From Myxococcota bacterium (GTDB lineage: Bacteria > Myxococcota_A > UBA9160 > JAFDDA01): DNA of 64,000 nucleotides. The stretch is from assembly GCA_965228475.1 (NCBI GenBank), contig OZ245817.1, positions 3,552,001 through 3,616,000 of the forward strand, written 5' to 3'. Positions 4,656-64,000 of the stretch are shown here, piece by piece. A program made the position numbers and the translations under genes. Positions within the stretch are counted from its first letter, which is position 1, and every line of letters starts with the position of its first letter. Below the pieces are notes generated by a model. That model did no database searches. It saw nothing but the letters and a program-made list of their open reading frames with translations, and was not told the DNA's origin.

Positions 4656-5396
4656 TCATCGCGTCGGCTGCGCGTCGCTGGAAGGCTCCGAGCCGGGCCG
4701 CTCGGCCTCGTAGAGGCTCACGAGCCGGGCGACCAGAACCGCGACGTAGAGGACGCCGACCACGGATTCGAGAATCTCGAGGGAGCGTGCAGGGCCGCTC
4801 TCCGGTGTGACGTCGCCGTACCCGAGCGTCGTCAGGGTCACGAAGCTCGCGTAGAGCAGGTCGGCCCAGGGCGGCGTCTTGCCCTGCCCCTCCGGGATCG
4901 CGAAAGAACCGGGCGAGACGGTCTCGAGCCAGGCGAAGCAGGCCGCAAAGGCCATGCCGAGCAGCAAGTAGACGCAGGCGGCGCCCGCCAGCGTATCGAC
5001 CCCGACGCGCCTGGCACCGAAGACCTCTCGGAAGACGAGGGCCGTGATCCACAGATGGAACGCGGCCTCGAACGCGAGGGACGCTGCCTCGAGGTTCCGC
5101 GAGGCCCGCACGACGTTCGCCGCGTCGGTTCCGGCCGCCGCGATGGCAAGCGCGCAGGCCAGACCGAAGGCGGCGCCGTTCGCGCCCGCCGCCAGAACGC
5201 CAGCGACCAGGACGAGAGCCGAGATGCCATGGAGGAGGACCGCGTCGGCGAGGTCGTGGCTGGCGTACGGATAGGCCAGCAGCAACCCGACCAGGCTCGC
5301 GAGCAGCAGGCGGAAGCGCCACCCCTCGGACGGGCTCGGGAGGGGCCCCGAGGCCGGGCGCACCCTTGCCCGGGTCGGCGGTTGGACGGCATGCAT
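4656..5396 (-). CDS. Potassium channel family protein (Ion_trans_2)
   Basis: Several TM helices and selectivity filter TLTTLGYGD; AGGAGG SD upstream. Confidence 0.85.
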   Translation of the reverse strand: MHAVQPPTRARVRPASGPLPSPSEGWRFRLLLASLVGLLLAYPYASHDLADAVLLHGISALVLVAGVLAAGANGAAFGLACALAIAAAGTDAANVVRASRNLEAASLAFEAAFHLWITALVFREVFGARRVGVDTLAGAACVYLLLGMAFAACFAWLETVSPGSFAIPEGQGKTPPWADLLYASFVTLTTLGYGDVTPESGPARSLEILESVVGVLYVAVLVARLVSLYEAERPGSEPSSDAQPTR

Positions 5397-5418: not shown

Positions 5419-5448
5419 AAACGCCCCTTTCGGCCCGAAACCCCGCAA
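5419..5448 (-). promoter_or_regulatory. Putative ECF sigma promoter, copy 1 (K+ channel)
   Basis: Minus strand TTGCGGGGTT TCGGGCCGAAAGGG GCGTTT, matching TTGCGGGnnTT-N13-GCGTTT; 22 nt before the ATG. Confidence 0.65.
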
Positions 5449-5512
5449 CGTTCTCGGAGTTCCGCGGGTTTCGCGTGCTCGGCTGGAGGGAACGCGGGCC
5501 CCCCCTGGTTTT

Positions 5513-5542
5513 TTGCGGGTTTTCGAAGCTCCCGCTGCGTTT
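5513..5542 (+). promoter_or_regulatory. Putative ECF sigma promoter, copy 2 (pqiA operon)
   Basis: TTGCGGGTTTT-CGAAGCTCCCGCT-GCGTTT; 17 nt before the ATG at 5560. Confidence 0.65.
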
Positions 5543-5559: not shown

Positions 5560-6192
5560 ATGGTCCCTGGCCGAGACCCGAAATCCCTGGCTCGCGGAGC
5601 CGTCGCCTGCCACGCATGCGACTGGCTCCAGGAGCGAGTCGAGCTCTCCTCCGGCGAGCGGGCGCGCTGCGCCCGATGTGGGACCGAACTCTTCCGAAGC
5701 CACCGGGAAGGCTTCGACCGGCCGATCGCGCTGACCGTGGCGGCGGCCGTCTGCTTCGGTCTCGCCAACACCTTTCCACTCCTCGCCCTTTCCCTCGAGG
5801 GCCGCGTGCAGCACAGCACCATCCTCGACGGCGTGCTCGACCTCGCGGCGGACGGGCTCTGGATCGTCGCCGGCTTCGTCTTCCTGGTGACGATGGCGGT
5901 GCCGTTCCTGCAGATCGCCGGTCGATTCTACCTGCTCCTCCCCCTGTCGCGCGGCAGGCGAGCCCCTGGATTCCACCGAAGCCTGCGAAGCCTCTCGTGG
6001 CTCGGGCCGTGGGGGATGCTCGAGGTCTACCTGCTCGGCGTGATCGTGGCGATCGTCAAGCTCTCGGATCTGGCTCAGGTCGAGATCGGCGTCGCTTTCT
6101 ACGCCTTCCTGGCCCTGATCGTGCTCGAGATCGCCGCCGCCGCGAGCCTCGACCCTCATGCGATCTTCGAAGCCGCGGAGACCGCGCAATGA
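5560..6192 (+). CDS. pqiA: Paraquat-inducible protein A (PqiA/LetA-like), N-terminal half
   Basis: CxxC...CxxC zinc ribbon (CHAC, CARC); WGMLEVYLLGVIVAIVKL motif. Confidence 0.9.
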   Translation: MVPGRDPKSLARGAVACHACDWLQERVELSSGERARCARCGTELFRSHREGFDRPIALTVAAAVCFGLANTFPLLALSLEGRVQHSTILDGVLDLAADGLWIVAGFVFLVTMAVPFLQIAGRFYLLLPLSRGRRAPGFHRSLRSLSWLGPWGMLEVYLLGVIVAIVKLSDLAQVEIGVAFYAFLALIVLEIAAAASLDPHAIFEAAETAQ

Positions 6193-6803
6193 CGGGCACG
6201 ACGGCCAGGACGGCAGGCTTGCGCGCCTGCCTGAACTGCGAGGCGCTCTGGCCTCTCGCGGGCCCTTCGACGTGTGCGCGCTGCGGCGCCGATGTCCCGC
6301 TGCGCCTGCCCGAGAGCCTCTCGCGAACCCTCGCCCTGCTCCTCGCTGCCGCCGCACTGTATGTCCCTGCGAACTGGTTCCCGATCATGACCGTCCGCCG
6401 CCTCGGCCAGGGTGAGCCGGCCACCATCCTCGGCGGCTGTCAGCATCTGTTCGAGTCCGGCATGTACGGGCTCGCGGCCCTCATCTTCTTCGCGAGCGTG
6501 CTCGTGCCGGGCCTCAAGCTCGTGGGCCTCGCCTATCTGGTGGCGATGACCCATCGGCGCTCTCGCAAGCGGCTGCTCGAACGCACGCGTCTCTACCACG
6601 TGATCGAGATTTTCGGCCGCTGGTCGATGATCGACGTGTTCGTCATCGCGATTCTCGTGGCGCTCGTCCAGCTCGGCGCCCTCGCACGGATCGAGCCTGG
6701 GCTCGGCGCCACCTTCTTCTGTCTCGTCGTCGTCATCACCATGTTCGCCTCGGCGAGCTTCGACCCCCGAATGATGTGGGATGTCCTGGAGGATCCATCA
6801 TGA
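6189..6803 (+). CDS. pqiA: Paraquat-inducible protein A (PqiA/LetA-like), C-terminal half
   Basis: ATGA overlap at 6189; CLNC/CARC; GRWSMIDVFVIAILVALVQ and SFDPRMMWD motifs. Confidence 0.9.
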   Translation: MTGTTARTAGLRACLNCEALWPLAGPSTCARCGADVPLRLPESLSRTLALLLAAAALYVPANWFPIMTVRRLGQGEPATILGGCQHLFESGMYGLAALIFFASVLVPGLKLVGLAYLVAMTHRRSRKRLLERTRLYHVIEIFGRWSMIDVFVIAILVALVQLGALARIEPGLGATFFCLVVVITMFASASFDPRMMWDVLEDPS

Positions 6804-8596
6804 GCGATCGAACCGACCCGCAGCACGCAGCGCAGGGCCTGCCCCGCACGCGCGTGGACCGCCGCCGGAGCATTCCCCTCGTCTGGTGGATCCCCATCGT
6901 GGCCCTGCTCGTCGGCGCTGGTGTGATCTACGACAGCTACGCGAGCCGCGGACCGACGGTGACGCTCCGCTTCAGCGACGGACAGGGCCTCGAGGCGGGC
7001 AAGACCCGCATCAAGTACAAGTCCGTCGAGATCGGCCTCCTGACCTCGATCCGTCTGAGCGACGATTTGAGCGGCGTCGTGGCCGAAGCGGAGATGGATC
7101 CCGGCACGGAAGGCCATCTCACCGACGCCACGGCCTTCTGGCGGGTGACACCCCAGGTCGGGTTCTCGGGCGTGACCGGTCTCGACACCCTCGTGTCGGG
7201 AGCCTACGTCGCGGTGTACCCCGCGGCCGGGACGCCACAACGCGAGTTCGAGGTGGCCGATCACGCACCGATCGATCTGGGTCATCGTGACGCTCTGCAC
7301 CTCCGCCTGCGATCCGCGCGCGGCGCGGTCCCGATCGGTGCTCCCGTCACCTGGCGGGGCATGATCGCCGGAGAGGTCACGCGCACGACGGTGGCCGATG
7401 ACGGGGAAGGGTTCGTGATCCACGCCCTGGTGGACCGCCCCTTCGCCGACGGGGTGCGGGCGGGCACGCGGTTCTGGCGCGAGAGCGGCATCGACGTTTC
7501 GCTCGGAGCCGCGGGGCTCGAAGTCCATGCTGGCTCCGTGCGCTCCATCGTGACGGGCGGCATCGCCTTCGACGGGCCCGAGGAAGCCGAAGGCCCGGCG
7601 CTCGAGCCCGGCGCCGAGCTTCCGCTCTTCGCCAACGAGAAGGCCGCCAAGGACGCGGACGTCCGCGCGGCCGGCCTGATCGTCCGGGTGGAGGCCCGCG
7701 ACGCCACGGCCCTTTCCGACGGCGCCCCGGTGCTCTACCGCAAGTCGCGTATCGGCCGCGTGCTCGGCCACGCCCTTTCGCCCGACGCCCGCACCATCCA
7801 AGCGGAGGTGCTGATCGAGGCCCGCTTCGCGCCGCTCGTCCGGGCGAACACGCGGTTCTGGAACGCCAGCGGCGTGCGCGTCGAGATGGGCCCGACCGGG
7901 CTCGCCGTCGAGACGGGACCCCTCGCCCAGGTGGTCGGCGGAGGACTCTCCCTCGCGACGCCCGACCGGCCGGGAGCGCCCGCGGAACCGGGCCGACTGT
8001 TCGCGCTGGCCGAGGAACCGTCCGAGCGATGGCTCGCCTGGGCCCCGGAGATCTGGCTGGCCGGCGAGGACCCGAGCAAGGCCGTCGCCCACGCCCTGCC
8101 CCGGACGGCGCGGCCCGCCGGGCTCGCGATCGAACTGGTCTCGGACGAGGCCGGCTCGGTCTCGCCGGGCGCGGGCGTGTACTTCAGGCGCCTCCGTGTG
8201 GGGGAAATCGTTTCGCGCGAGCTCGCCGGCGACGCGCGAACCGTGCGCATCCACGCTCGCATCGAGCGTCGCTACGCGCACCTCGTCCGCCAGAACTCGC
8301 GATTCTGGAACGCCAGCGGAATCGGAGTCGACATGGGCCTCGGCGGACTTCGCGTCCAGACCGAATCGATGGAAGCGCTGCTCGCAGGCGGCGTGGCCTT
8401 CGCGACCCCCGACCCGGCCGGCGCCCCGGCGAAACGAGGCAGCTCGTTCGCGCTGCACGGGAAGGGTCGAGACGAATGGCGCGACTGGGCGCCGGCGCTC
8501 GGCGTCGGCGGGTCCGCTCCGGCCGCGGTCACGGCGGCCGGCACGGCCGGCACCGCCAGGGCCGGGGGCTTCTGGGGGCGGCTGCTGGGACGCTGA
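6800..8596 (+). CDS. Multi-MCE (MlaD) domain protein, PqiB/LetB-like, four MCE domains
   Basis: WWIPIVALL TM; four repeats of the GxxVxYRxxxxGxV...T(R/A)FW pattern; ATGA overlap with pqiA. Confidence 0.9.
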   Translation: MSDRTDPQHAAQGLPRTRVDRRRSIPLVWWIPIVALLVGAGVIYDSYASRGPTVTLRFSDGQGLEAGKTRIKYKSVEIGLLTSIRLSDDLSGVVAEAEMDPGTEGHLTDATAFWRVTPQVGFSGVTGLDTLVSGAYVAVYPAAGTPQREFEVADHAPIDLGHRDALHLRLRSARGAVPIGAPVTWRGMIAGEVTRTTVADDGEGFVIHALVDRPFADGVRAGTRFWRESGIDVSLGAAGLEVHAGSVRSIVTGGIAFDGPEEAEGPALEPGAELPLFANEKAAKDADVRAAGLIVRVEARDATALSDGAPVLYRKSRIGRVLGHALSPDARTIQAEVLIEARFAPLVRANTRFWNASGVRVEMGPTGLAVETGPLAQVVGGGLSLATPDRPGAPAEPGRLFALAEEPSERWLAWAPEIWLAGEDPSKAVAHALPRTARPAGLAIELVSDEAGSVSPGAGVYFRRLRVGEIVSRELAGDARTVRIHARIERRYAHLVRQNSRFWNASGIGVDMGLGGLRVQTESMEALLAGGVAFATPDPAGAPAKRGSSFALHGKGRDEWRDWAPALGVGGSAPAAVTAAGTAGTARAGGFWGRLLGR

Positions 8597-8648: not shown

Positions 8649-9236
8649 CTAGCCTTCGAAGCTCGGCCCGAGCTCGCGTCGTAGCCAGGCCCGGGCGAAG
8701 GTCCAGTCGCCCTCTACCGTTCGCGCCGAGACGCCGAGAGCCGCGGCCGCCTCCGGGGTCGTCATCCCGGCGAAGTAGCGGAGTTCGACGACACGTGCCT
8801 GGCGCTCCGAGAGCGCTTCGAGCCGCTTGAGCGCTTCGTCCAGCGCGAGCAGACCCTCGAGATCCACGCCGACCTCGGGGGACGACGGCCCCTGGGTCAG
8901 CGTCACCCGGCTCCAATCCCCGCCACGCTTCTGGCGCTTCCGCGCGACGGCGTGGTTGACGAGCAGACGTCGCATGGCCTGGGCACCGATTGCCAGGAAG
9001 TGCGTCCGCCCTTGCCATTCCACGCGCCTCTGATCGACGAGCTTCTCGTACGCTTCATGGACGAGCCCCGTCGCATCCAGGGTGTGCCCCGGTCGCTCCC
9101 GATTGAGGTAGCCGCTCGCGATCCGACGCATCTCGTCGTAGACCATCGGTAGGAGTTCTTCCGCCGCGCGACGAGCCCGCTCGGGGTCGCCCTCGATCCG
9201 CGTCAGCTGCTGGGTGACGAGCGCCCGGAGATCCAT
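8649..9236 (-). CDS. ECF sigma factor, TIGR02999/ECF43-like (kinase-associated)
   Basis: LLPMVYDEMRRIA, HTLDATGLVHEAY, AMRRLLVNHA..RKRQKRGG, VVELRYFAG, RTVEGDWTFARAWL; ATG at 9236. Confidence 0.9.
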   Translation of the reverse strand: MDLRALVTQQLTRIEGDPERARRAAEELLPMVYDEMRRIASGYLNRERPGHTLDATGLVHEAYEKLVDQRRVEWQGRTHFLAIGAQAMRRLLVNHAVARKRQKRGGDWSRVTLTQGPSSPEVGVDLEGLLALDEALKRLEALSERQARVVELRYFAGMTTPEAAAALGVSARTVEGDWTFARAWLRRELGPSFEG

Positions 9237-9279
9237 GGGGAGAAAGGTAGCCGGGTTTTCGCCGGGCCTCCGAGACCCT

Positions 9280-12200
9280 TCACGGCGAGCGCTCGAGGAG
9301 CGCTCGGGCGACGCGGCCGTCGAGGGGGTCGGGTTCTTCCGGCCAGCCGTCGAGCGACCGTTCGATGAGCCGGCGGGCTTCGGCCGGGCGGCCCGCATCG
9401 ACGTGCCAGCGGGCGAGATCGATCGCGGCCCGGAGACCGAAGGCGCGCGCACCGCGTGCTTCGGCCAGGGCAAGCGCCCGTTCGAGCGCCTCGACCCCAG
9501 CCGCGTCTCCCGCGTCGAGCCGGAGCCGCGCCGCACCCTGGAGTCGCAGCAGTTCGGGCTCCCCGAGACGGCTGAGGGTACCGGAGGTGATCTCCAGCCC
9601 GGCGTCGACGGATTGCAGGGCCTCCTCGACCCGGCCGGCCTGGAGCTGGCTCTCGGCGAGGTGGCTCAACAGGAGATCCACGTAGAGGACGGCGCCCGCG
9701 GCTCGGGCCTCGGCGACGGTCCGCGCTGCCCGGTCCAGGGCCGCCGGCTGCCTCGAAAAGGCGTCCGCACAGGCGCCCTGCGCAGAAGCCACCTTCTCGA
9801 GGAACAGGATTCCATGATCGCGGCTCGAAGCTTCGGTCGGACGGGCGAGAGCCAACGCATCCTCCCTCGATCGGCGCAGAAGGTGAAGCGCAGCGATGAA
9901 GGTGCCAGCCAGGGCGCGGTTGAGCGCCTCGCTCGAACGCTCGGCCGTCGCGAGGGCGCACCTGGCGTGTCGATCCGCTTCCGCCCTTCGCCCGCTCAGC
10001 CACTCGACGAGCGCCAGGTACTCGTGCGCCACCACCTCGAGGTCTTCCGGGTAGACCTCGAGGGGCTTCACGCCGTGGGTTCGCCAGTCTTCGAGGACTC
10101 CCTCGAGGAGCGGGCGGCAGCGATCCAACTCGCCCTTCCAAAGGGCGATCTCTCCCTGCCCGGCCCGCGCGTAGAGGGCGACGCGACGGTCGCCGGCTCG
10201 CTCCGCGGCCTCGAGCAGGGCATCGGCGCGGGTCTCCGCATCGAGGGCGCCCGCCGTCCGATAGGATCCGAGCAACGCGACCAGGGTGGAGAGTCGGCTT
10301 GGCGTCTTCGGGTCCAGGCTCAGACACGCTTCGTGGGCTCGATGGAAGACCCCCCGGGCCGCCTCCGAACCCCAGCCGAGCGTCGCGGACAGCGCGTAGC
10401 CGAGCCCGGAAAGAATGATCACTTCGCGCTCGCGATCGACGACGCCCGGCGGCAGGCCGTCCACCGCCGCGAGGGCCCGCTCGAAGTGATGTCGCGCCTC
10501 GCGATACGCACAGACCTGCTGGGCCGCGGCCCCGGCCTCGACCCAGGCCTCGAGTGCCTCTTCCAGACGCCCCGCCCGCTCGGCATGATGGGCGAGCCAT
10601 TCCGGGTGCTCCGACAGCTCCGGGGCGAACCGCTCGCGCAGCAAGGCGCACACCTGCCCGTGCAGGGACCGTCGCTCCGGAGCGGGAATCGATTCGTAGG
10701 CGGCTTCCTCGATCAGCGCGTGGCGAAAGGCGTAGGCCGTACCGCCGTGCGCGTCCGCTCGACGGGTCAGAATCTCGGCTTCGACCAGGCCGGCGAGGTG
10801 GTGGTCCACCGCCGCAGGATCTCCATCCGCGAGCGCTCGCAACTGGGGCGTCGAGAAGTCGCGACCCAGGACGGAGGCGAGTTGAGCGAGCACCTTGCCC
10901 CGGCCGAGGCCGTCGAGACGCGCCATCAGGAGGTCCTGCAGGCTCGCCGGAATGCTCTCGCCCGAAGCACCCTCGAGCGATTCGAAACAGCGGATCAACT
11001 CGCCGACGAACAAGGGGTTGCCATCGGCTCTGGTGAAGACACGATCGACCGCCTCGGCCCGGACGTCGCTTCCGAGTCGCCCTTCCATCATCCGGCGCAC
11101 CTCACTCTTCCGCATGCGCCGAAGTGCGACGGGCGTGACGTGTTCGCGTCCCAACCAATCCAGCTGCATCCCGGGGCGGGCCGAGAGCACCAGCAGCAAC
11201 CGACTGGTCGGGATCTCCTGCACGAGCCCCTCGACCACTTCGAGCGAGCTCGGGTCCGCGAAATGCAGATCTTCGACGACGAGGACCGCCGGGCCCGGCG
11301 CTCCGAGCGCCAGGGCCCACCGCACCAGCAGATCCTTGGTTCGACGGCTCACCTGCTCGGGGGCGAGCGTCTCGGACGGTTCGCCACCGGGCAACGGGAT
11401 GCGGAGCAGCTGCGCGACCAGCGGAAGGGCATCCTCCGCATCGGCCAGGCCCGAGCGCGAAACCCCCGCGCGCAGGATCTCGTAGGCGTGTTTCGGGTCT
11501 CGCGCCTCCCGCAGCGAGAGCTGTTCCCGAACGAGCTCGACCAGGGAGTGCAAGGGGCTCTGCTGCGAGAAGGATCGATTGCGGCACTCCGCCACGAAGC
11601 GTGGAGCCGTGCCGAGGCGAGCGCGAAGCTCTGCGACGAGTCGGGACTTCCCCACTCCGGCCTCGCCCGTCACGAGGACGACCTGCCCGACTCCCTCGAG
11701 CACCTGCTCGAAGCGATCCTCCAGCAGGGCCAGTTCCTGGGTTCGACCGACGAGGGCGTGGCGGTGGGCGGGGGTGCCTTCGCGCGGAGAGAGAACCTCG
11801 AAGGTCGACACCTGGGCGCTGTCGGGTCGTGGGCGAACTTCGAAACCGTCGCCACACGTCGCCAGGACCGCCTCCGTGGCGACGACGCTCCCGGCCGGGG
11901 CGCTCTGAAGGAGCCGTCGCGCGATCGTGAGCGTCGGCCCGAAGGTTCGGGGGCGCCCTGGCCCCTCTTCGATCAACGCGGGTCCCGTGTGGACGGCCAC
12001 CGCGACGGCCATCGGGGCCTGCGCGTCGAAATCCTGCCCAAAGGCCTCGCGCACTTCACACGCGGCACGCAGGGCGCGCTCGGGAGCATCTTCGAGCGCG
12101 GCCGGATGGCCGAAGTAGGCGATGAAGCCCTCGGCCTGAGGCTCGGCCACGGAGCCTCCGTAGCGAGCGACGACGGCCTCGCAGCGGGCGAGGGCCCCGC

Positions 12201-13350
12201 GCACGCGCTCGTCGAGCGCCTCGAGTTCGAGGTCCGACGCCAGCGCATCGCTGTTGCGCAGCTCGACGCACCAGACGGTGAGCGGCCGTCGCGCCCGCCG
12301 ACCGAGATGCTCGCTGGTGGACGTGAGCGAACCGGGCCGCGTCTCCGTGGCCGCGTCCGCGTTTCCCTCAAGCAGCTCGGCCAGCGCGGCGGCACTCGCC
12401 GGCCGCGCCGCGGGATCCTTCGCGAGGGCCTGGAGGATCGCCGCCTCGAGGTCCCGCGGCACGCCCGGCGCGCGCCGGGAAGGCTTTTCCGGGTCGGCGA
12501 AACGCTGCAGCTCGGACAGCGCTGCGGCCGTCTGGGCACGGAACGTCGCCTCTCCGGTCAGGAGCTCATGGAGAACGAGACCCAGCGCGTAGAGGTCCGT
12601 GCGCTCGCTCACCTCCGCGTCGAAGACGAGCTGCTCGGGGGCCATGTAGGCCGGCGTGCCGACCAGCGCTCCCGACCCGCCGTGCTCACGGGTCGTCGCA
12701 ATTCCGAAATCGACGATTCGCGGCTCTCCTTCGGCGTCGAGCAGGATGTTCGCGGGCTTGAGGTCGCGGTGAAGGACCCCCCGGTCGTGGGCCGCCTGGA
12801 GGCCGGCGCACAGGCGCGCGCCGATCCGGCGAACCCGCTCGGGAGACAGCGGGCCGACCCGCTTCAGCAGATCCGAGAGATCGCCGCCGTCCACGTACTC
12901 CATGGTCAAGAACAGTTCGTCGCCGACCTGGCCGACGTCGTACACGCGGCCCACCGCCGGGTGGGTCACTTCGCGTGCGAGGCGCACCTCCTCGAGCAGC
13001 CGGTCGCGATGCTCGGGACCCGGGTCACGAACCCGCTTCAGGGCGACGGTGACGCCGAGCGCCGTGTCCTCCACGCGGAAGACCTCGCCCATGCCGCCGT
13101 GCCCGATGCGTTCGAGCACACGGTAGCGGTCGGCAAGGAGGGTCCCGGTCCCGAGAACGGCCGAGCTGGCGGCTTCGCGCAGGGGAACGTGATGGCGGAG
13201 CAACGACTCGACCTCCTCTCGGAGGGAATCGTCCCCGGGGCATTCTCGTTCGAGGAAGCCGGCGCGCGCCTCGCCCTCGAGCTTCACCGCCTCGAGGAAC
13301 AGCTCCCGGACCCGTTCGAAGCGGCTCTTTCCCGAACCCGTGTTCTCCAG
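9280..13350 (-). CDS. Ser/Thr kinase - degenerate class III cyclase - AAA/STAND ATPase - TPR fusion
   Basis: GHGGMGEV, VALK, HRDLKPAN, DFG, APE; cyclase-like segment; Walker A GEAGVGKS and Walker B VLVVEDLH; helical repeats. Start proposed at CTG 13350 after AGGAGG (ORF track start 13287). Confidence 0.9.
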   Translation of the reverse strand: MENTGSGKSRFERVRELFLEAVKLEGEARAGFLERECPGDDSLREEVESLLRHHVPLREAASSAVLGTGTLLADRYRVLERIGHGGMGEVFRVEDTALGVTVALKRVRDPGPEHRDRLLEEVRLAREVTHPAVGRVYDVGQVGDELFLTMEYVDGGDLSDLLKRVGPLSPERVRRIGARLCAGLQAAHDRGVLHRDLKPANILLDAEGEPRIVDFGIATTREHGGSGALVGTPAYMAPEQLVFDAEVSERTDLYALGLVLHELLTGEATFRAQTAAALSELQRFADPEKPSRRAPGVPRDLEAAILQALAKDPAARPASAAALAELLEGNADAATETRPGSLTSTSEHLGRRARRPLTVWCVELRNSDALASDLELEALDERVRGALARCEAVVARYGGSVAEPQAEGFIAYFGHPAALEDAPERALRAACEVREAFGQDFDAQAPMAVAVAVHTGPALIEEGPGRPRTFGPTLTIARRLLQSAPAGSVVATEAVLATCGDGFEVRPRPDSAQVSTFEVLSPREGTPAHRHALVGRTQELALLEDRFEQVLEGVGQVVLVTGEAGVGKSRLVAELRARLGTAPRFVAECRNRSFSQQSPLHSLVELVREQLSLREARDPKHAYEILRAGVSRSGLADAEDALPLVAQLLRIPLPGGEPSETLAPEQVSRRTKDLLVRWALALGAPGPAVLVVEDLHFADPSSLEVVEGLVQEIPTSRLLLVLSARPGMQLDWLGREHVTPVALRRMRKSEVRRMMEGRLGSDVRAEAVDRVFTRADGNPLFVGELIRCFESLEGASGESIPASLQDLLMARLDGLGRGKVLAQLASVLGRDFSTPQLRALADGDPAAVDHHLAGLVEAEILTRRADAHGGTAYAFRHALIEEAAYESIPAPERRSLHGQVCALLRERFAPELSEHPEWLAHHAERAGRLEEALEAWVEAGAAAQQVCAYREARHHFERALAAVDGLPPGVVDREREVIILSGLGYALSATLGWGSEAARGVFHRAHEACLSLDPKTPSRLSTLVALLGSYRTAGALDAETRADALLEAAERAGDRRVALYARAGQGEIALWKGELDRCRPLLEGVLEDWRTHGVKPLEVYPEDLEVVAHEYLALVEWLSGRRAEADRHARCALATAERSSEALNRALAGTFIAALHLLRRSREDALALARPTEASSRDHGILFLEKVASAQGACADAFSRQPAALDRAARTVAEARAAGAVLYVDLLLSHLAESQLQAGRVEEALQSVDAGLEITSGTLSRLGEPELLRLQGAARLRLDAGDAAGVEALERALALAEARGARAFGLRAAIDLARWHVDAGRPAEARRLIERSLDGWPEEPDPLDGRVARALLERSP

Positions 13351-13437: not shown

Positions 13438-16400
13438 TCAAACCCGCGCCCGTGCGGGGAACTCGACGCGGAAGAACAGGGCGTAGAGGGCGGGGACGGC
13501 GAGGAGGGTGAGCAGCGTTCCGAAGCCGATCCCGAAACTGATCACCACAGCCATCGCCGAGAAGAGCGGGTCTGCCGGAACCATGAGCGGGATCAGCCCG
13601 AGCACGGTCGTGAGCGTCGTCATCATGACCGGCTGGAAGCGGGAGACCGACGCAAAGACCACCGCATCGTATGGCGTCTCGCCCGAATCGATCTCGCTCT
13701 GGATCGTTTCCAACAGGACGATCGCATTGTTGATGATGATGCCCGCGAGGGAAAGAAAACCGAGCGTCGCCATGAAACCCAGGTAGGAGTCCGTGAGCCA
13801 GAGGCCCGCGATGGCCCCGATGAAGGTGATCGGGATCGTGATGAAGACGATCGCCGGCTTCAGGAAGGAATTGAACTGCCACACCAGGATGACGACCATG
13901 GCTGCCAGGGCGTGTGGCACGAACGCCGCGAGCGCCTGGTTCGCATCGTTCGCATCCTTGGTCTCGCCGTCCAACTGGAGTGAGTAGCCGAGCGGGAGTT
14001 CCGAGGAGAGTCGTTCCAGAGCGGGTGCAAGTTCCTCTTCGAGCTGCGCCGCCTGGAGCCAGGCGTGTTTGGCGCTGATCGTGATCGTCCGGGCGAGGTC
14101 ACGGCGTTCGATTCGCGAGAGCTGCGTGCGCGCTTCGAAATCCGCGACCTGCAGGAGCCCCACGTCCGCCCCACGTCCCTCGGAGTAGATGTTCAGACTT
14201 CGGACGCGGTCCAGGTTCCGGCGTTCGGAATCGATCGCCCGGAACACGACCGGGATGACGCGGTCCGCCTCGCGGTAGTCGGTCACGTACTCTCCGCTGA
14301 AGTAGCCGTTCAGACTCGTCGCGACCTCCCGGGAAGAGACGCCCGCACGTCGGGCCCGGGGTTGATCCACGCGGATGCGGACCTTGCTGACGCGATTCTC
14401 CCAGTCGCTGTGCACGTCGATCGTCCCGGGGATGGCACGCAGGGCCGACCGGACGTCTTCCCCGAGAGCCGCCAGGCGATCGCGGTGCTGGCCGGAGACG
14501 CGGATCTTCACGAGACCGGTCTCCGAGGTGCCGAGCCAGAACTTCTTGACGCGACTGAAGACGACCGGGTGGTGCTCGGTCATGCGACGCCGCGTGCGGT
14601 CGAGGAGCGCGTCCACGGCCTCGACCGACTTCGTGTTGACGAGCACGAAGGCGACGTTGGGAGCCGCGTCGCGCGGCGAGAGCGGCACGAAGAAACGCGG
14701 GCCCCCGTAGCCCACGTAGGCGACGTGGCTCGCGACCTCGGGGTTCGTCTCCTCGTCGCCCAGCCAGTCGAGGAGCCGACGGACCTCCGCATCCGTTGCA
14801 TGAAAGCCGTACCCGGCGGGCAGGTCCACGTAGATCATGAATTGGGATCGCGGCGAGTTCGGCATGAACTGCTGGGGCACTTCCTCGAGCAGCACGACGG
14901 AACTCGCCAGCGCAGCGCCGATGGCCGACACGAACGAGACGGGCCGCCGCAGGACTCTCTCGAGCAGCGCCCGGTAGATCTGGAACATGCGTCCCTCGTA
15001 GGCTCGAGCGATCTGCTCGGGCGTCAGGATCTCCGGCTGCATCCAGCGGACGCACAGGAGCGGGGTCACGCACACGGCCAGCAGCCAGGAACACAGCAAG
15101 GTGACGGCGATCACGATCGTCATGGAGCGCAGGTATTCGCCGGTGTCGTCCGGCGCGAGGGCGAGAGGCATGAACGCCAGGATGGTCGTGATCGACGAGG
15201 TGAGCAGGGGAATCGCGAGGCTCCGGCCCGCGGCAATCGCAGCGTCACGGCGGTCTTCGCCCTCCCGAAGCCGGCGCCCGATCTCCTCCGCCATGACGAT
15301 GCCATTGTCGACGAGCAGCCCGAGGGCGATGATGAGCGTCGCCAGGCTGACGCGCTGCAACTCGATTCCGAGCACTCGCATGATGACGATCGTGAGGAGC
15401 ATGGTCATCGGCACGACGGTCCCGACGATGAGACCCGTCCGGACGCCCAGGAACACCATCACGACGACCAACACGATGCCGAGCGTCTCGTAGACGTTCA
15501 GCGCGACGCCCTGAACGGACTCCGCGACGTAACGCGCCTGGTAGGTGGCGAACTCCATCTGGTAGCCGACCGGGAGGCCCGCTTCGATCCGTTTCACCCG
15601 CTCGCGCAGCCGCGGGCCGAATTCCAGCACGTTGCCGCCCTTCATCATGGAGACCGCCAGGACCACCGCTGGCCGTCCCCCGAAGTAGGCCTTCGTCTCG
15701 GGCGGATCCACATACGCGCGATTGACGCGAACGAGGTCTTTCAGGTAGGCGACGTCCCCCGTCGCGGGGATCCGGATCAACAGGTTCTCGATGTCCTCGA
15801 CCGTCTCGAAGCTTCCCGAGGGCTCGATTGCCACGCTCAGCAGGCCGGTGTCGACGCTCCCACCCGGAAGGATCACGTTCTGGTCCCGCAGCGTCCGCTC
15901 GAGCTCGATCGGTGAGATGCCGTAGCGAGCCAGACGGGCGTCGCTCGTTTCGAGGTAGACCTGCTCGCGTTGTGCGCCGTGGAGAACCACCTTCTTCACG
16001 CCGTCGAGCGAGTAGATCTCGTCGCGCGCGGCTCGGGCCACGTCGCGCAGCTCGTGCATCGAGAAGCCGGCGGCCGTGATGGCGACCGTGGCCACGTAGA
16101 CGTCTCCGAACTCGTCGTTCACGAAGGGGCCGGCCGTACCTTCCGGCAGATCCTCCCGGACGTCGTTCATCTTGTTGCGCAGGTCCTGCCAGATGCGGGC
16201 CATGTCGAAGAAGCGATCCGAAACGATCACGTGCACGATCGCCATGCCCGCCTTCGAGCTGGCCTGGATGTGCTCCACCTCGGGAATCAACCGGATCTTC
16301 TTCTCGAGCTTGCGGGTGATCAGGTCTTCCACCCGCTCGGGCGACATGCCGGGATAGAGCGCGGTCACCACCGCTTCCCTCACGGTGACCTCGGGATCCT

Positions 16401-16506
16401 CCTTGCTCGGAAAGTCCAGATAGAAGGCCACCCCTGCGGCCATCGACAGCGCCGTGAGCAGACCGACGAGCCGCTCGTTGTCGAGGGCGAAGCGAGTCAG
16501 ATTCAT
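13438..16506 (-). CDS. RND efflux transporter permease (AcrB/AcrD/AcrF family)
   Basis: 1022 aa; YPGMSPERVE, ALGLLVDNGIV, RFQPVMMTTLTTVLGLIPL. Confidence 0.95.
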   Translation of the reverse strand: MNLTRFALDNERLVGLLTALSMAAGVAFYLDFPSKEDPEVTVREAVVTALYPGMSPERVEDLITRKLEKKIRLIPEVEHIQASSKAGMAIVHVIVSDRFFDMARIWQDLRNKMNDVREDLPEGTAGPFVNDEFGDVYVATVAITAAGFSMHELRDVARAARDEIYSLDGVKKVVLHGAQREQVYLETSDARLARYGISPIELERTLRDQNVILPGGSVDTGLLSVAIEPSGSFETVEDIENLLIRIPATGDVAYLKDLVRVNRAYVDPPETKAYFGGRPAVVLAVSMMKGGNVLEFGPRLRERVKRIEAGLPVGYQMEFATYQARYVAESVQGVALNVYETLGIVLVVVMVFLGVRTGLIVGTVVPMTMLLTIVIMRVLGIELQRVSLATLIIALGLLVDNGIVMAEEIGRRLREGEDRRDAAIAAGRSLAIPLLTSSITTILAFMPLALAPDDTGEYLRSMTIVIAVTLLCSWLLAVCVTPLLCVRWMQPEILTPEQIARAYEGRMFQIYRALLERVLRRPVSFVSAIGAALASSVVLLEEVPQQFMPNSPRSQFMIYVDLPAGYGFHATDAEVRRLLDWLGDEETNPEVASHVAYVGYGGPRFFVPLSPRDAAPNVAFVLVNTKSVEAVDALLDRTRRRMTEHHPVVFSRVKKFWLGTSETGLVKIRVSGQHRDRLAALGEDVRSALRAIPGTIDVHSDWENRVSKVRIRVDQPRARRAGVSSREVATSLNGYFSGEYVTDYREADRVIPVVFRAIDSERRNLDRVRSLNIYSEGRGADVGLLQVADFEARTQLSRIERRDLARTITISAKHAWLQAAQLEEELAPALERLSSELPLGYSLQLDGETKDANDANQALAAFVPHALAAMVVILVWQFNSFLKPAIVFITIPITFIGAIAGLWLTDSYLGFMATLGFLSLAGIIINNAIVLLETIQSEIDSGETPYDAVVFASVSRFQPVMMTTLTTVLGLIPLMVPADPLFSAMAVVISFGIGFGTLLTLLAVPALYALFFRVEFPARARV

Positions 16507-17609
16507 CGGAGCCGGCCTCCTGCCACCTGCTCCGGTTCGGCCCCGAACAGGGTGACGGGCTGATCGTCCGAGAGGAACTCGACGCCCGCGGCGGCCACGA
16601 TCATCCCCGCCTCGAGACCCTCGGAGACCTCGACCTGGTTGTTGCGCAGGCCGGATACCACGATCTCCGTCCGCTTCACCGTCCCCGTTGCCGCGTCGTA
16701 GACGAATACCGAGTAGGCGTCGTCCGCCTCTGCACGGAGCGCCGCCAGGGGTAGATGGACTCCCGACGAAGCGGCTCGCCGCCCCACGTAGACGAACTCG
16801 GCCTCTACGGTCATGCCCGGACGCATCTTCTCGGGGCGTTCGAGGAGTCGGATCTTCATCGGGAAGGCGTCGGCGATGCCAGCCCGGGAGCCGAGCTGGG
16901 AGATCCGGCCGGGGACCCGCTCTCCGGCGAGGGTGGGAAAGACGACCGTCACCGGGTCGCCCGCGGCGACGTAGAGGGCCACGGCCTCGGGAGCTGCGAG
17001 CGCCACTTCGTAGGAACGTTCGCTATCGAGCTCGAAGAGGGGCTCGCCCGCGGGGACTTCGACGAAGGCGTCCACCTTCTTCAGGGAGATGACGCCATCG
17101 AAAGGCGCGCGAAGGACCGCGTTGTTCAAGTCGCGCCGGGCGAGGCCCAGCTCGGCGCGAGCGGCCCGCGTGAGCCCCTCCGCATTCGCATGGGCCGCTC
17201 GCACGCGGTCGTAGGCGGACTGGCTGACGGCGCCGGCGTCCAACATCCGCTGGTATCGAGCGAACTCGGCCTGCTGGCGAATTCGCTCGGCCTCGGCCTG
17301 GCTCACGCGCGCCTGGGCCCGGTGCACGGCCAACTCGAACGGCTGCACGTCGAGTTCGGCGAGCACGTCGCCCTTCGAGACGCGGTCACCCAGGGAGGCC
17401 ACGACCCGCCGGACGCGGCCCGAGACTTCGAAGGAGAGCTGGCTCTCGACGGTGGGGCGCACCGTGCCGGAGATCCTGCGCTCCTCGGCGGCTCCTTCTT
17501 CCTGCACCCGCACCCACTTGATGGCCCGCAGGGGGATCTCGGGGGGCGGCGGTTCGGCGCCGCAGCCGACGACGGCCAACAGGCTGGCGAGAGCGATTCG
17601 TGACCTCAT
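16503..17609 (-). CDS. RND periplasmic adaptor (membrane fusion) lipoprotein
   Basis: Lipobox-like VVGC; LSFEVSGRV...GDVLAELD, LRAPFDGVI, RPGMTV; ATG 17609 with GGAGG SD. Confidence 0.9.
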   Translation of the reverse strand: MRSRIALASLLAVVGCGAEPPPPEIPLRAIKWVRVQEEGAAEERRISGTVRPTVESQLSFEVSGRVRRVVASLGDRVSKGDVLAELDVQPFELAVHRAQARVSQAEAERIRQQAEFARYQRMLDAGAVSQSAYDRVRAAHANAEGLTRAARAELGLARRDLNNAVLRAPFDGVISLKKVDAFVEVPAGEPLFELDSERSYEVALAAPEAVALYVAAGDPVTVVFPTLAGERVPGRISQLGSRAGIADAFPMKIRLLERPEKMRPGMTVEAEFVYVGRRAASSGVHLPLAALRAEADDAYSVFVYDAATGTVKRTEIVVSGLRNNQVEVSEGLEAGMIVAAAGVEFLSDDQPVTLFGAEPEQVAGGRLR

Positions 17610-17629: not shown

Positions 17630-17659
17630 AAACGCCACATCGGGAGGGAAGTCCCGCAA
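17630..17659 (-). promoter_or_regulatory. Putative ECF sigma promoter, copy 3 (RND operon)
   Basis: Minus strand TTGCGGGACTT-CCCTCCCGATGTG-GCGTTT; 20 nt before the ATG at 17609. Confidence 0.65.
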
Positions 17660-17783
17660 CCCTGATCGGGGTCGCCCTCACGGAAGGCGCCCCCGGGGCG
17701 CGGCGGGGGCCCTGGGGGGCGCGGCAAGCTCGGGGACTCGCCTGCCAGGTGCGAGGGACGTCCGCCGGGAAGGCTCGACGCCG

Positions 17784-17813
17784 TTGCGGGGTTTTTCGCG
17801 AAAGGTGGCGTTT
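17784..17813 (+). promoter_or_regulatory. Putative ECF sigma promoter, copy 4 (secreted protein)
   Basis: TTGCGGGGTTT-TTCGCGAAAGGTG-GCGTTT; 28 nt before the ATG at 17842. Confidence 0.65.
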
Positions 17814-17841: not shown

Positions 17842-18369
17842 ATGCGATCCCGAAGCCTCTTTGCCCTCGCCTCGCTCGGCACCCTCATCGCCGCAGGCCC
17901 CGCCGCGGCTGCCGGCTACGACCACGTCCTCTCCGTGGCCGCCGACCGCTCCCCGGTGACCCTCCGGGTCGGCCCCGGGGATACGATGACCTGGCTGAGC
18001 CTCCTCAAGCAGCCGGTCTGGGTGGAGCTGCGCCGCCAAGGTCGGCGAGATGCCTGCCCCGACGGTCGACGAGACGTCCGGATGCTCCTGCTTCCGGGTT
18101 CCTCGGTGAAGAGCTGCTGGCTGCACGAGGGCGTCTACGAGTACCGGGTGCTCGCTTCCGCCCCGAGGTCCGACGGTTGGGCGCGCACGAAAGCGATCGA
18201 ACTCCTGCTCGCCGACCACCCGCTGCGTCCCTTGGACGAGCAGGCCCGCGCAGAAGAACACGAGCGGGTCCGCGCGAGGCGCGAGGCGCGCGATCGTGCC
18301 GAGAGCCGGGACGCCGTGAGCTTCCGAAGAGCGGCGGTGGTCGGGACGTCGCTCCTCGGCACGCCCTAG
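17842..18369 (+). CDS. Hypothetical secreted protein, possibly cupredoxin-like fold
   Basis: AAGGAG SD; signal peptide ending AAA; VTLRVGPGDTMTW and GVYEYRV resemble cupredoxin strands. Confidence 0.6.
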   Translation: MRSRSLFALASLGTLIAAGPAAAAGYDHVLSVAADRSPVTLRVGPGDTMTWLSLLKQPVWVELRRQGRRDACPDGRRDVRMLLLPGSSVKSCWLHEGVYEYRVLASAPRSDGWARTKAIELLLADHPLRPLDEQARAEEHERVRARREARDRAESRDAVSFRRAAVVGTSLLGTP

Positions 18370-62402: not shown

Positions 62403-63818
62403 GTGGCCGGGATCGCCTCCTACGGCGCCTACGTCCCGCCGACGCGCCTGCCCCTCTCCGCCCTCGGCGGCCGGCCGGCCAAGGAAGGCGGCCCGGAGAA
62501 GGCCGTCGCCTGGAACGACGAAGACGCGGTCACGATGGCGGTGAGCGCGGCGGTGAACTGCCTGCGCGGCTTCGACCGCACGCGCGTCGACGGCGTCGTC
62601 TTCGCGTCCACGAGCTACGCCTTCCAGGAGAAGCAGGGCGCGGCACTCCTCGCCAAGGCCCTCGACCTGCCGCGCGACGTTCGCACCTCGGATCAGAGCG
62701 GATCGCTCCGGGCCGGCACCGCGGCCCTGCGCGCCGCCATCGACTCCGTTCGCGCGGGCTCGACGCGCAACGTGCTCGTGGTCGCGAGCGACTGCCGCAT
62801 GGCGGCGCCCGGCTCTCCCCTCGAAGCGAACCTCGGCGACGGCGCCGTCGCGTTCCTCGTCTCGGACGAGAACGTGGTGCTCGAGTTCGACGGCGCTCAC
62901 GCCGTCGCCGACGAGATCGTCGATCTCTGGCGCACGCGGCAGGACACCTTCGTCCACAGCTGGGAGGACCGCTTCGTCGTCCAGGAGGGCTACGTCCCGA
63001 ACACGACCGACGTCGTTGCGGGGCTGTCGGAGAAGCTCGGGGCGAAGGCCGCGGACTTCGCCCGCGTCTGCCTCTACGCCCCGGACGCGCGCAGCCACGG
63101 CACCGTGGCTCGGAAGCTCGGCCTCTCGGGCGACCAGACCCAGGCTCCGTTCTTCGGCCGCCTCGGCAACGCCGGCTGCGCCTTCACGCTCCTCCAGCTC
63201 GCCGCCGCCCTGGAAGCGCTCTCCCCGGGCGAGCGCGTGCTCGCCGTGAGCTACGGCGACGGCGCCGAAGCCCTCGCCTTCACGGCCAGCGAGCACGCCG
63301 AGAAGCTCGGCCCTCGACGCGGCGTCTCCTGGCACCTCGAGCGCCGGCGCCCCGTCGCCAGCTACGACAAGTACGTGAAGGCGCGCAACCTGAACGCCAC
63401 CGAGTGGGTGGACGCCTCCGGCCCGGGCCTCTCGGCGACCGTCCACCACCGCGAGCGCGACGAAGACCTCGCCCTGCTCGGCCAGCAGTGCAACGCCTGC
63501 GGTGCGCACCAGTTCCCGAACCAGCGCGTGTGCGAGAGCTGCTTCGCGAAGGACGACTTCACGCCGGCGCGCTTCTCGGACCGCATCGGCCGCGTCGTCA
63601 CCTACACCTTCGACTTCTTCTTTCCGACGCCGGATCCGCCCACCGTCGTCACCATCACCGAGGTCGACGGCGCGCGGATCCATCTCCAGCTGGTCGACGT
63701 CGACCCGAAGGCCGTCGCCACGGGGATGCCCGTCGAGTTCCAGCTTCGCCGCATTCACATGGCTGGCGGCCGCCCGAACTACTACTGGAAGGCGTGCCCG
63801 GCCGAGGAGCCCCAATGA
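62403..63818 (+). CDS. HMG-CoA synthase-like domain fused to DUF35 Zn-ribbon/OB-fold
   Basis: GIASYGAYVP, EDAVTMAV, GDGAVA, GNAG, SYGDG; C-terminal CNAC...CESC; GTG start at 62403. Confidence 0.85.
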   Translation: MAGIASYGAYVPPTRLPLSALGGRPAKEGGPEKAVAWNDEDAVTMAVSAAVNCLRGFDRTRVDGVVFASTSYAFQEKQGAALLAKALDLPRDVRTSDQSGSLRAGTAALRAAIDSVRAGSTRNVLVVASDCRMAAPGSPLEANLGDGAVAFLVSDENVVLEFDGAHAVADEIVDLWRTRQDTFVHSWEDRFVVQEGYVPNTTDVVAGLSEKLGAKAADFARVCLYAPDARSHGTVARKLGLSGDQTQAPFFGRLGNAGCAFTLLQLAAALEALSPGERVLAVSYGDGAEALAFTASEHAEKLGPRRGVSWHLERRRPVASYDKYVKARNLNATEWVDASGPGLSATVHHRERDEDLALLGQQCNACGAHQFPNQRVCESCFAKDDFTPARFSDRIGRVVTYTFDFFFPTPDPPTVVTITEVDGARIHLQLVDVDPKAVATGMPVEFQLRRIHMAGGRPNYYWKACPAEEPQ

Positions 63819-64000
63819 GCGAAGGCATCCGCGACAAGGTCGCCATCGTCGGCGTCGGCTGTTGCCCGTTCGGCGAGAACTGGGACCAGTCGCCCTCGGA
63901 CATGATCGTCGACGCGGCCTACCAGGCCTACGCCGATGCGGGGATCGAAGACCCGCAGGAGCGCATCGAAGCGGTCTTCACGGGCTCGATCTACTCGCAG
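63815..64000 (+). CDS. Thiolase family protein (3' truncated)
   Basis: ATGA overlap; MSEGIRDKVAIVGVGCCPFGENWD...AYADAGI. Confidence 0.8.
   Translation, partial: MSEGIRDKVAIVGVGCCPFGENWDQSPSDMIVDAAYQAYADAGIEDPQERIEAVFTGSIYSQ

Follow-up and report, generated by a model that had tools for sequence, protein, structure and literature searches.

How does an ECF43 sigma factor come to be governed by a kinase that has no membrane-spanning receptor? The question is raised by a locus of a Myxococcota bacterium (GTDB lineage JAFDDA01), within a stretch of 64,000 nucleotides of contig OZ245817.1 (assembly GCA_965228475.1, positions 3,552,001 to 3,616,000 of the forward strand) that we call the window. 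There, the gene for an ECF43 sigma factor lies next to a gene for a serine/threonine kinase that carries a module of the signal transduction ATPases having numerous domains (STAND), a tail resembling tetratricopeptide repeats (TPR), and no transmembrane (TM) segment. EcfP/PknT and EcfK/PknS have been described with membrane receptor kinases of unknown signal (for PknS, PMC13147305). A first-pass annotation of the window, made from the letters alone, had read the two genes as a sigma factor paired with a soluble STAND kinase instead of a membrane receptor kinase, and had proposed that a cytoplasmic signal switches on the sigma factor directly. Our analysis confirms the observation itself and partly supports the interpretation as a whole.

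The two genes probably encode a cognate ECF43 kinase/sigma pair whose kinase is cytoplasmic and STAND gated, where such pairs usually have a membrane receptor kinase; phosphorylation of the sigma factor and a cytoplasmic signal are inferred. A chance neighborhood is unlikely because of the N-terminal extension of the kinase, the clade of its kinase domain, its one-to-one occurrence with the sigma factor in the genome, and the conserved adjacency of the two genes. The pair is of a known signaling kind, and its membrane-free STAND kinase partner is a rare, lineage-conserved form.

The sigma factor and its candidate acceptor threonine

The sigma factor scored 195.0 bits against TIGR02999 (cut-off, 126.15) and matched PF07638 with an E value of 1.3e-53, and a genome-wide profile search found it to be the sole TIGR02999 gene of the 5.0-Mb genome. 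ECF43 proteins carry a motif consensus that replaces the acidic DAED motif (PMC13147305 and the supplement of PMC7826278). In the window sigma factor, the stretch HTLDATGLVHEAY at residues 51 to 63 includes the region 2.2 motif DATG, in which the acidic motif is replaced and the Thr conserved, as in ECF43, with the first Asp (D54) retained. The candidate phospho-acceptor is T56, encoded by the codon at 9069-9071. We compared this region with that of the 80 closest relatives from species-representative genomes, at 49 to 63% identity, in 74 of which the motif was recognized as the four residues ahead of LVHEAY. The third motif position was Thr in 73/74 and Ser in 1/74, the commonest form being QPTA (n = 50), and the earlier statement that the sigma factor keeps a Thr in region 2.2 thus holds. 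T56 aligns with the phospho-Thr of EcfP, the second Thr of STTA, and with T51 of EcfK, and phosphorylation at the position aligned with T56 activates both EcfP and EcfK (PMC8999054, PMC13147305).

Domain architecture of the kinase

The open frame of the kinase runs from 13437 to the stop at 9280 on the minus strand, giving 1386 codons stop to stop with a coding-frame composition, as judged by G+C at third codon positions (GC3). It opens with the N-terminal extension (RFERVRELFLEA...CPGDDSLREEVESLLRHH), for which no Pfam family was matched. An AlphaFold2 (AF2) model of kinase residues 1 to 340 had a mean predicted local distance difference test (pLDDT) score of 88.5, and the extension block, at pLDDT 91 to 96, was modeled as helices at residues 10-21, 26-36, and 41-53. 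The best solved relative of the kinase domain that follows is PknB (E = 4.4e-48), and the catalytic motifs are all intact, with the Gly loop at 83-90, K105, HRD at 194-201, DFG at 214-216, and APE at 237-239. Next comes the cyclase-like domain, in which both metal-binding Asp residues are replaced by Glu and the catalytic Asn by Thr while the Arg is kept; the domain therefore lacks the residue set of a class III cyclase (two metal Asp and an Asn/Arg pair), and no Pfam match to Guanylate_cyc (PF00211) was obtained in the window kinase at E <= 0.01. It probably has no catalytic role and acts as a spacer or dimerization module. Among the five closest proteins (P0001 and P0003 to P0006; alignment columns 380 to 450), the first metal-binding Asp was kept solely in P0003; the alignment suggests that catalysis is being lost from the domain in this clade, whereas relatives in genomes G454 and G456 still match PF00211.

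The AAA_16 domain, with its Walker motifs, is followed by a tail in which Pfam returned weak matches to TPR_12 at residues 1274-1335 (E = 4.4e-5) and to TPR_2 at 934-961 (E = 0.0052). The tail is homologous to the TPR tails of related proteins and aligns with the TPR part of the NCBIfam family TIGR03903; no ligand-binding family was recognizable in it by Pfam. A Kyte-Doolittle scan for TM segments (19-residue window, threshold 1.6) returned a sole hydrophobic peak above 1.6, at residues 674-692, which is the strand running up to Walker B rather than a membrane helix; by this criterion the kinase is soluble. The earlier description was thus borne out for the intact catalytic motifs, for the absence of a TM helix, and for a P-loop ATPase followed by a TPR-like tail. 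The cyclase-like domain that it named is recognizable only through weak matches to solved class III cyclases (Table 1) and is degenerate.

The start of the kinase bears on whether the gene is functional. No ATG, GTG, or TTG occurs in the kinase frame ahead of the conserved extension, and the first canonical start, GTG 13287, is that of the database copy P0002 and would remove helix 1. CTG 13350, where the first-pass annotation placed the end of the gene region, is the likely, though unproven, start because it follows GGAGG by 4 nt and because in genome G517 a GTG stands four codons ahead of that helix in the ortholog. We weighed whether the kinase gene might instead be decaying, with the sigma factor left as an orphan that is silent or weakly constitutive through Asp54. 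The noncanonical start, where the G517 ortholog has its GTG, would fit decay, as would D54 and the Asp-to-Glu and Asn-to-Thr replacements of the cyclase-like domain. However, 1386 codons have stayed open with coding composition, all kinase and ATPase motifs are intact, a GGAGG precedes the CTG, and the sequence was unchanged in independent sequencing runs (in two runs, each from a different study, the word share was 1.00). We regard decay as very unlikely.

Evidence for a probable partnership of the kinase and the sigma factor

A kinase open reading frame (ORF) was present in 79 of the 80 loci of the closest sigma relatives. The kinase domain lies downstream of the sigma gene on the same strand in 74/79, on the opposite strand in four (L046, L092, L094, and L095), and ahead of the sigma factor within the same open frame in one (L050); the window kinase is at position -1 to its sigma gene, versus +1 in the literature. 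A hidden Markov model (HMM) of the extension, built from 30 sequences and run on the 2805 ORFs of the relatives' loci, matched 71 of the 79 neighboring kinases, and 72 of its 75 matches were kinase ORFs, in agreement with the claim that the extension is typical of kinases next to TIGR02999 sigma factors. The window genome has one copy of the extension and six Hanks kinases.

In a tree of 144 kinase domains (quick IQ-TREE search with the Shimodaira-Hasegawa-like approximate likelihood ratio test [SH-aLRT] and no bootstrap), the window domain fell in a 49-row set with an SH-aLRT support of 99, made up of 42 ECF43-adjacent kinases, the four closest database homologues, L048, P0097, and the window domain. 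No kinase of the type found in thiazole/oxazole-modified peptide (TOMM) systems was in that set, and the median identity of the window domain was 46% to the ECF43-adjacent group versus 38% to the TOMM-type group. A second tree, of 141 modules joining the cyclase-like domain to the nucleotide-binding oligomerization domain (NOD), placed the window in a 65-row set with a support of 96, which holds 54 kinase-less, six kinase-fused, and four close homologues; the window branch is long (0.87), and this placement is less secure. The window kinase is best read, from the two trees, as a putative chimera, in which the kinase head of an ECF43 partner has been fused with a cyclase-STAND body.

These trees bear on a different reading, that the protein is a TOMM-system kinase/cyclase fusion of the TIGR03903 type working in a thiazole/oxazole-modified peptide pathway. 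TIGR03903, a kinase/cyclase/ATPase/TPR fusion family, is the best NCBIfam match of the window kinase and aligns with residues 101-1312, nearly end to end and in the same order of kinase, cyclase, AAA_16, and TPR; many homologues also bear that name. The alignment nevertheless scored 470.5 bits where the cut-off is 705.75, the kinase domain falls outside the TOMM-type clades, and the STAND part groups mostly with kinase-less cyclase-STAND proteins (54/65 rows, on the long branch noted above). The window kinase also differs in its extension and its sigma partner; a search of the genome (96% complete) returned no YcaO, and no TOMM gene was present among the neighbors scanned. TOMM membership, failing on score, tree, and YcaO absence, is close to refuted, and we find it hardly credible.

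The first-pass annotation had suggested modeling the sigma factor with the kinase N terminus. Complex prediction with kinase residues 1-340 (30-row alignment) and the sigma factor (81 rows) gave a score of 0.49, versus 0.00 for the best of three controls. Of 157 solved complexes, 116 reach the mark used, as do two of 215 mismatched pairs, and scores of at most 0.60 at the mark were seen for 18 of the 157 solved complexes and for both passing mismatches. The runs shared at least 34% of contacts, with a partner pLDDT of at least 52. This modeling fits the kinase/sigma pairing weakly and adds little; the check thus lent the pairing a little support but returned no interface.

Conservation of the architecture

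Kinase residues 1-900 were searched exhaustively with HMMER; among 1.84 billion representatives there were 231,540 matches at E <= 1e-30, and 22 of the best 150 representatives, the window's own included, had the extension, kinase, and AAA_16 in line. Within the order, a search of 193 genomes with kinase residues 1-340 (E <= 1e-60) found matches in nine, again including the window's own. Seven of the other eight were examined, G449, which lies on a short contig, being left out. Three of them (G517, G454, and G456) encode the extension, kinase, cyclase-like domain, AAA_16, and TPR in a protein of about 1350 amino acids with no TM-like segment and with an ECF43 sigma gene adjoining, and G453 has the same kinase, cut by the start of the contig. 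The window kinase is 32 to 39% identical to the proteins of these four genomes over 1350 amino acids. The G517 locus is syntenic, with the order kinase then sigma, a sigma factor 72% identical to that of the window with the motif DATG, and pqiA and pqiB genes convergent on it whose products are 62% and 46% identical to those of the window. In G454 and G456, the order is sigma then kinase, and their cyclase domains are those that match PF00211; PF00211 matches were returned for the relatives L223 and L225. G472 and G421 have membrane-type kinases. Adjacency that survives a change in gene order is a good argument that the two genes function as a pair.

The soluble STAND kinase is rare among ECF43 systems overall and is the commonest partner type among the seven loci examined in this order. 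In a phylum sample of 401 genomes searched with the full-length kinase, no match covered the extension and STAND parts, and that sample had missed the carrier genomes.

In genome G027, a kinase (C1:72489-76199, L224) is fused directly to AAA_16 without a cyclase-like part, and the extension was not found in it by BLAST. The ECF43 sigma gene of that genome lies at 63410-63958, on the same strand and 8.5 kb away.

Might the two window genes be mere neighbors, the kinase acting on other substrates, as PknK of Mycobacterium tuberculosis does, and the sigma factor being controlled otherwise? PknK is a soluble kinase with several substrates, and its paper cites the STAND literature (PMC9045387); the weak complex prediction and the distance between kinase and sigma factor in G027 also fit this view. 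Against it stand the ECF43-specific extension, the kinase-domain clade, the one-to-one occurrence in the genome, the lack of an anti-sigma gene adjoining the sigma gene, and an adjacency that G517, G454, and G456 retain whichever of the two gene orders they have. We judge it quite unlikely that the two are not partners.

Rarity among ECF43 partner kinases and other STAND forms

TM segments are present in 64 of the 79 kinases that neighbor the closest sigma relatives: a TM-like segment comes just after the kinase domain in 50, ahead of it in 13, and further on in the protein in one. Three others are truncated by a contig end, and 12 are without a TM-like segment. None of the 79 contains the cyclase, NOD, or TPR parts of the window kinase by BLAST at 1e-4. 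In agreement with these counts, a single TM helix has been given for 87.8% of ECF43 kinases, which are encoded at position +1 (supplement of PMC7826278). Having neither a TM helix nor an extracytoplasmic sensor, the window kinase departs from this description, and the architecture was rightly called unusual. As to its co-occurrence with TIGR02999, it proved rare among ECF43 partners but is not unique, being conserved in the same order and accompanied by other STAND forms elsewhere.

Several such forms were seen among the relatives; L048, L050, L094, and L095 belong to the 12 kinases without a TM-like segment. L048 (9522-12968, plus strand), next to an ECF43 sigma gene, has the extension, a kinase domain 55% identical to that of the window, NB-ARC, and TPR, and looks, from this domain content, as though a STAND module had been fused independently to the same kinase head. 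L050 (6703-9528, plus strand), from a metagenome-assembled genome labeled Thermoanaerobaculia, is a 942-codon frame with nSTAND1 at 139-367, kinase at 500-748, and sigma at 765-931; the sigma part is ECF43, 63% identical to that of the window, with the motif QPTA, and the kinase passes directly into sigma region 2. Kinase and presumed substrate would here be fused in one polypeptide, a single instance in which an assembly error is possible. In L046 (7789-9576), L095 (7594-9573), and L094 (7717-9564), all on the plus strand, the ECF43 sigma factor is the C-terminal end of frames of 596 to 660 codons that start with a P-loop ATPase, with AAA_22 matches in the N-terminal part of the L046 and L095 frames. 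L094 and L095 also have a TM-less kinase gene 2.3 kb from the fused sigma factor on the opposite strand; that of L094 joins nSTAND1 to the kinase, and in the similar kinase of L095, Pfam reports the kinase domain alone. No full ortholog of the window kinase was found in the genomes of L048, L050, L094, L022, and L021. A metagenome scan with the kinase alignment showed ordinary kinases only among the 80 loci listed and is uninformative on the frequency of the architecture.

Predicted promoters and target genes

On the minus strand of the window (70% G+C), hlyD, acrB, the kinase gene, and the sigma gene are four closely packed genes in series (Table 1). hlyD and acrB overlap in ATGA, the gap from acrB to the kinase gene is 87 nt, and 43 nt separate the kinase gene from the sigma gene downstream of it. 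Around the pair, we found no sigma-70-type promoter and three terminator-like sites versus 5.3 expected, and no anti-sigma gene was present beside the sigma gene among the neighboring window genes scanned. The pqiA-pqiA'-pqiB genes are convergent on the sigma gene.

The pattern ACGCG-N17-CCGC occurred in 12 of 79 sigma-upstream regions of the relatives versus one control region, and the 80 loci of the relatives held 57 exact ACGCG-N17-CCGCA sites with the consensus ACGCG[A/T]C-N14-TCCGCA. A position weight matrix based only on the relatives (one relaxation, giving 69 sites) ranked four intergenic sites of the window first, at 21.7, 19.4, 19.0, and 18.5 bits, with the next best at 9.7. The pattern that they share, AAACGC..C-N14-CCCGCAA, occurred four times in the window versus zero times in 100 shuffles. 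Genome-wide, the stricter pattern was exact at two sites only, both among the four; with up to two mismatches it gave six matches, four of them the window sites, and a reversed control pattern gave four. The relatives' consensus ACGCGWC-N14-TCCGCA, with up to two mismatches, gave five window matches versus 12.6 expected.

Two divergent intergenic regions, one to each side of the pair, hold the four sites, and within each region the two motifs face each other. Each motif adjoins the start of the other gene, and the leaders, with a length of 100 to 180 nt, would be antisense to each other over some 50 and 110 nt (5419-5542 and 17630-17813). No motif was found in the 87-nt gap before the window kinase gene, and the kinase and sigma genes are therefore most simply taken as the tail of the pump operon, an arrangement that would give positive feedback. 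G517 has a related motif 60 to 90 nt before the kinase start, at 14.2 bits, and L094 has three strong sites, one of which (24.0 bits) is upstream of the nSTAND1-kinase gene. Taken together, the motifs suggest that the pair may turn on the resistance-nodulation-division (RND) pump, the lipid transporter encoded by pqiAB, the channel gene, the secreted protein, and itself.

A different motif, CTTGT-N18-GATAAT, precedes the sigma gene in L027, L030, L032, L033, L036, L040, L041, L042, and L080, and also in L023. These sites are about 60 to 100 nt before the sigma match, in relatives labeled Phycisphaerae or Tepidisphaeraceae, and look like a housekeeping-type promoter rather than the ECF43-type motif.

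Table 1. Features of the kinase/sigma locus and its surroundings, in positions of the 64,000-nucleotide window
Feature	Position	Strand	Basis
ECF43/TIGR02999 sigma factor, 195 aa; ATG 9236, stop 8649	8649..9236	-	TIGR02999, PF07638
Soluble STAND Ser/Thr kinase gene, 1356 codons if CTG 13350 is the start; stop codon 9280-9282	9280..13350	-	Open frame, Pfam/NCBIfam domains, no TM segment, GC3 pattern
N-terminal extension, residues 10-53, three helices, candidate sigma-docking domain	13192..13323	-	Alignment, AF2 model, HMM
Hanks-type kinase domain, residues 76-323, catalytic motifs intact	12382..13125	-	Pfam Pkinase E 2.4e-49, motif positions
Degenerate class III cyclase-like domain, residues 353-505	11836..12294	-	PDB matches 2w01 (E 3.8e-5), 3r5g
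AAA_16 STAND nucleotide-binding oligomerization domain, residues 533-721	11188..11754	-	Pfam E 4.4e-21; weak NACHT 0.0033
Walker A GEAGVGKS, residues 562-569	11644-11667	-	Motif position
Walker B VLVVEDLHFAD, residues 689-699	11254-11286	-	Motif position
C-terminal helical/TPR-like region, residues about 900-1356, presumed sensor	9283..10653	-	Weak Pfam TPR, homology
HlyD-family lipoprotein (17609-16503; ATG 17609, lipobox start MRSRIALASLLAVVGC) and AcrB-family RND pump (16506-13438)	13438..17609	-	Pfam; predicted target operon
PqiA in two halves (5560-6192, about 6210-6803), then a PqiB-like protein carrying three MlaD domains (6776-8596); pqiA ATG 5560	5560..8596	+	Pfam; predicted target operon
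Ion_trans_2 channel-like membrane protein (ATG 5396), predicted target	4656..5396	-	Pfam, ORF
175-aa protein, signal-peptide-like N terminus, no family, predicted target	17842..18369	+	Sequence; no Pfam match
ECF43-type motif AAACGCCAC-N14-CCCGCAA facing hlyD-acrB-kinase-sigma, about 170 nt before hlyD ATG 17609	17784..17813	-	19.4 bits
Motif copy facing small secreted-protein gene starting at 17842	17630..17659	+	19.0 bits
Motif copy facing pqiA (ATG 5560)	5419..5448	+	18.5 bits
Motif copy facing ion-channel-like gene (ATG 5396)	5513..5542	-	21.7 bits

A proposed mechanism and its weak points

At rest, by analogy with STAND biology, AAA_16 would be closed and the kinase monomeric and inactive. 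A cytoplasmic cue acting on the C-terminal TPR-like region would lead to nucleotide-dependent oligomerization and thereby juxtapose the kinase domains for trans-autophosphorylation of the activation loop. The three-helix extension, in keeping with the weak computational support from the complex prediction, would dock the sigma factor, and the kinase would then phosphorylate T56, and possibly linker sites, providing the negative charge, missing from ECF43 sigma factors, for binding to core RNA polymerase as known for EcfP. The holoenzyme would read the four AAACGC..C-N14-CCCGCAA motifs as promoters, its presumed targets being the RND pump operon running into the kinase and sigma genes (positive feedback), pqiAB, the channel gene, and the secreted protein. 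That STAND switch and sigma phosphorylation form one pathway is a tentative proposal, which we think possible rather than probable: a cytoplasmic ligand would assemble a STAND-kinase oligomer, the three-helix domain would recruit the inactive sigma factor, and phosphorylation would activate it, with the sigma factor reporting an intracellular cue and driving efflux and envelope lipid transport. The link would be modular: in relatives, NB-ARC or nSTAND1 takes the place of AAA_16, and some of them fuse the NTPase, or the NTPase and kinase, to the sigma factor.

Several points weigh against a STAND-gated kinase that activates the sigma factor in this way. The first motif position of the window sigma factor is Asp (D54), found in 1/74 relatives, with Glu in 4/74, and the retained Asp may allow some kinase-independent activity. 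The EcfK T51A variant of Xanthomonas citri is functional, and the linker site T106 also matters (PMC13147305); in EcfK, the Thr of region 2.2 is therefore not the sole functional phosphosite. On the kinase side, there is no canonical start before the extension, a start at GTG 13287 would lose helix 1, the TPR assignment comes from weak Pfam matches plus homology, and the complex prediction was weak and returned no interface. The promoters were assigned by motif similarity only and lie 100 to 180 nt from their genes, face to face. PqiAB occurs near related sigma factors in just 2 of the 80 loci, and no motif facing pqiAB was found in L049 or L052.

A further reading makes the STAND module a constitutive oligomerization scaffold or an autoinhibitory tail, with control mainly transcriptional through the positive-feedback promoter, such that any activation of the pump operon would raise the kinase and sigma factor too. 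The pair comes last in the hlyD-acrB string, which follows an ECF43-type motif, and this is consistent with such control, as are a cyclase-like domain without catalytic residues and a tail without a ligand-binding family recognizable by Pfam. Yet Walker A and Walker B are intact, and the module has been kept in the 1350-aa proteins of four other genomes although identity is only 32 to 39%, which speaks for selection on its function. The STAND proteins characterized so far are, moreover, inducer-gated switches (PMC4381067). Such a scaffold or tail seems unlikely to us, and the STAND-gated cognate pair remains our preferred reading.

Comparison with known systems and implications

In the literature that we searched, which excludes Iyer et al. 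2020 (Nat Microbiol), said to be a survey of ECF43 kinases and one that may list such forms, we found no description of an ECF43 sigma factor paired with a STAND kinase. Compared with PknT, which we take to be membrane-bound, the window kinase differs in being soluble, in its STAND module, and in being encoded upstream of the sigma gene, and the motif is DATG in the window versus STTA in EcfP. In other respects, EcfP/PknT of Vibrio parahaemolyticus, also ECF43, resembles the window pair: the sigma factor is of the Sigma70_ECF/TIGR02999 type without the acidic DAED and with a Thr at the third motif position, a Hanks kinase adjoins it, there is no anti-sigma factor, and the targets are envelope related (PMC8999054). 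EcfK/PknS of Xanthomonas citri, another ECF43 pair, offers a model for a sigma factor's direct phosphorylation by the neighboring kinase, which is here predicted. PknS likewise has a conserved N-terminal part of about 83 amino acids before its kinase domain and uses TPR repeats as a sensor. Unlike the window kinase, it is described as a transmembrane kinase, with a TM helix, periplasmic TPRs, no P-loop ATPase, and no cyclase-like domain, and EcfK differs from the window sigma factor in controlling a type VI secretion system (PMC13147305).

Outside ECF43 systems, the nearest likenesses combine some of these parts. The C-terminal part of M. tuberculosis PknK is presumably a MalT-like STAND region. 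By description, PknK differs from the window kinase in having no ECF43 sigma partner, no such extension, and no cyclase-like domain; it is alike in being a Hanks kinase and soluble, and its substrates include transcription proteins (PMC9045387). MalT/AfsR-type STAND regulators share an inducer-gated NOD with a repeat sensor (PMC4381067), but their output is a fused DNA-binding domain, whereas the proposed output in the window is a kinase acting on a separate sigma factor. Fusions of sigma region 4, NB-ARC, and TPR occur in cyanobacteria (PMC11119718), and ECF-like helix-turn-helix domains occur in TRADD-N/STAND conflict systems (PMC8195603).

Ser/Thr phosphorylation has been demonstrated as a means of sigma factor control in few pairs only. 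With a soluble STAND kinase and its sigma factor, two soluble proteins could suffice to reconstitute the whole pathway in vitro, and the role of the conserved N-terminal extension becomes directly testable. The predicted local regulon, comprising the RND pump, PqiAB, and the kinase and sigma genes themselves, offers ready reporters on which the proposal can be tested. As far as predicted domain architectures go, the family shows an ECF43 output module that has been coupled several times to cytoplasmic sensors resembling nucleotide-binding leucine-rich repeat (NLR) proteins.

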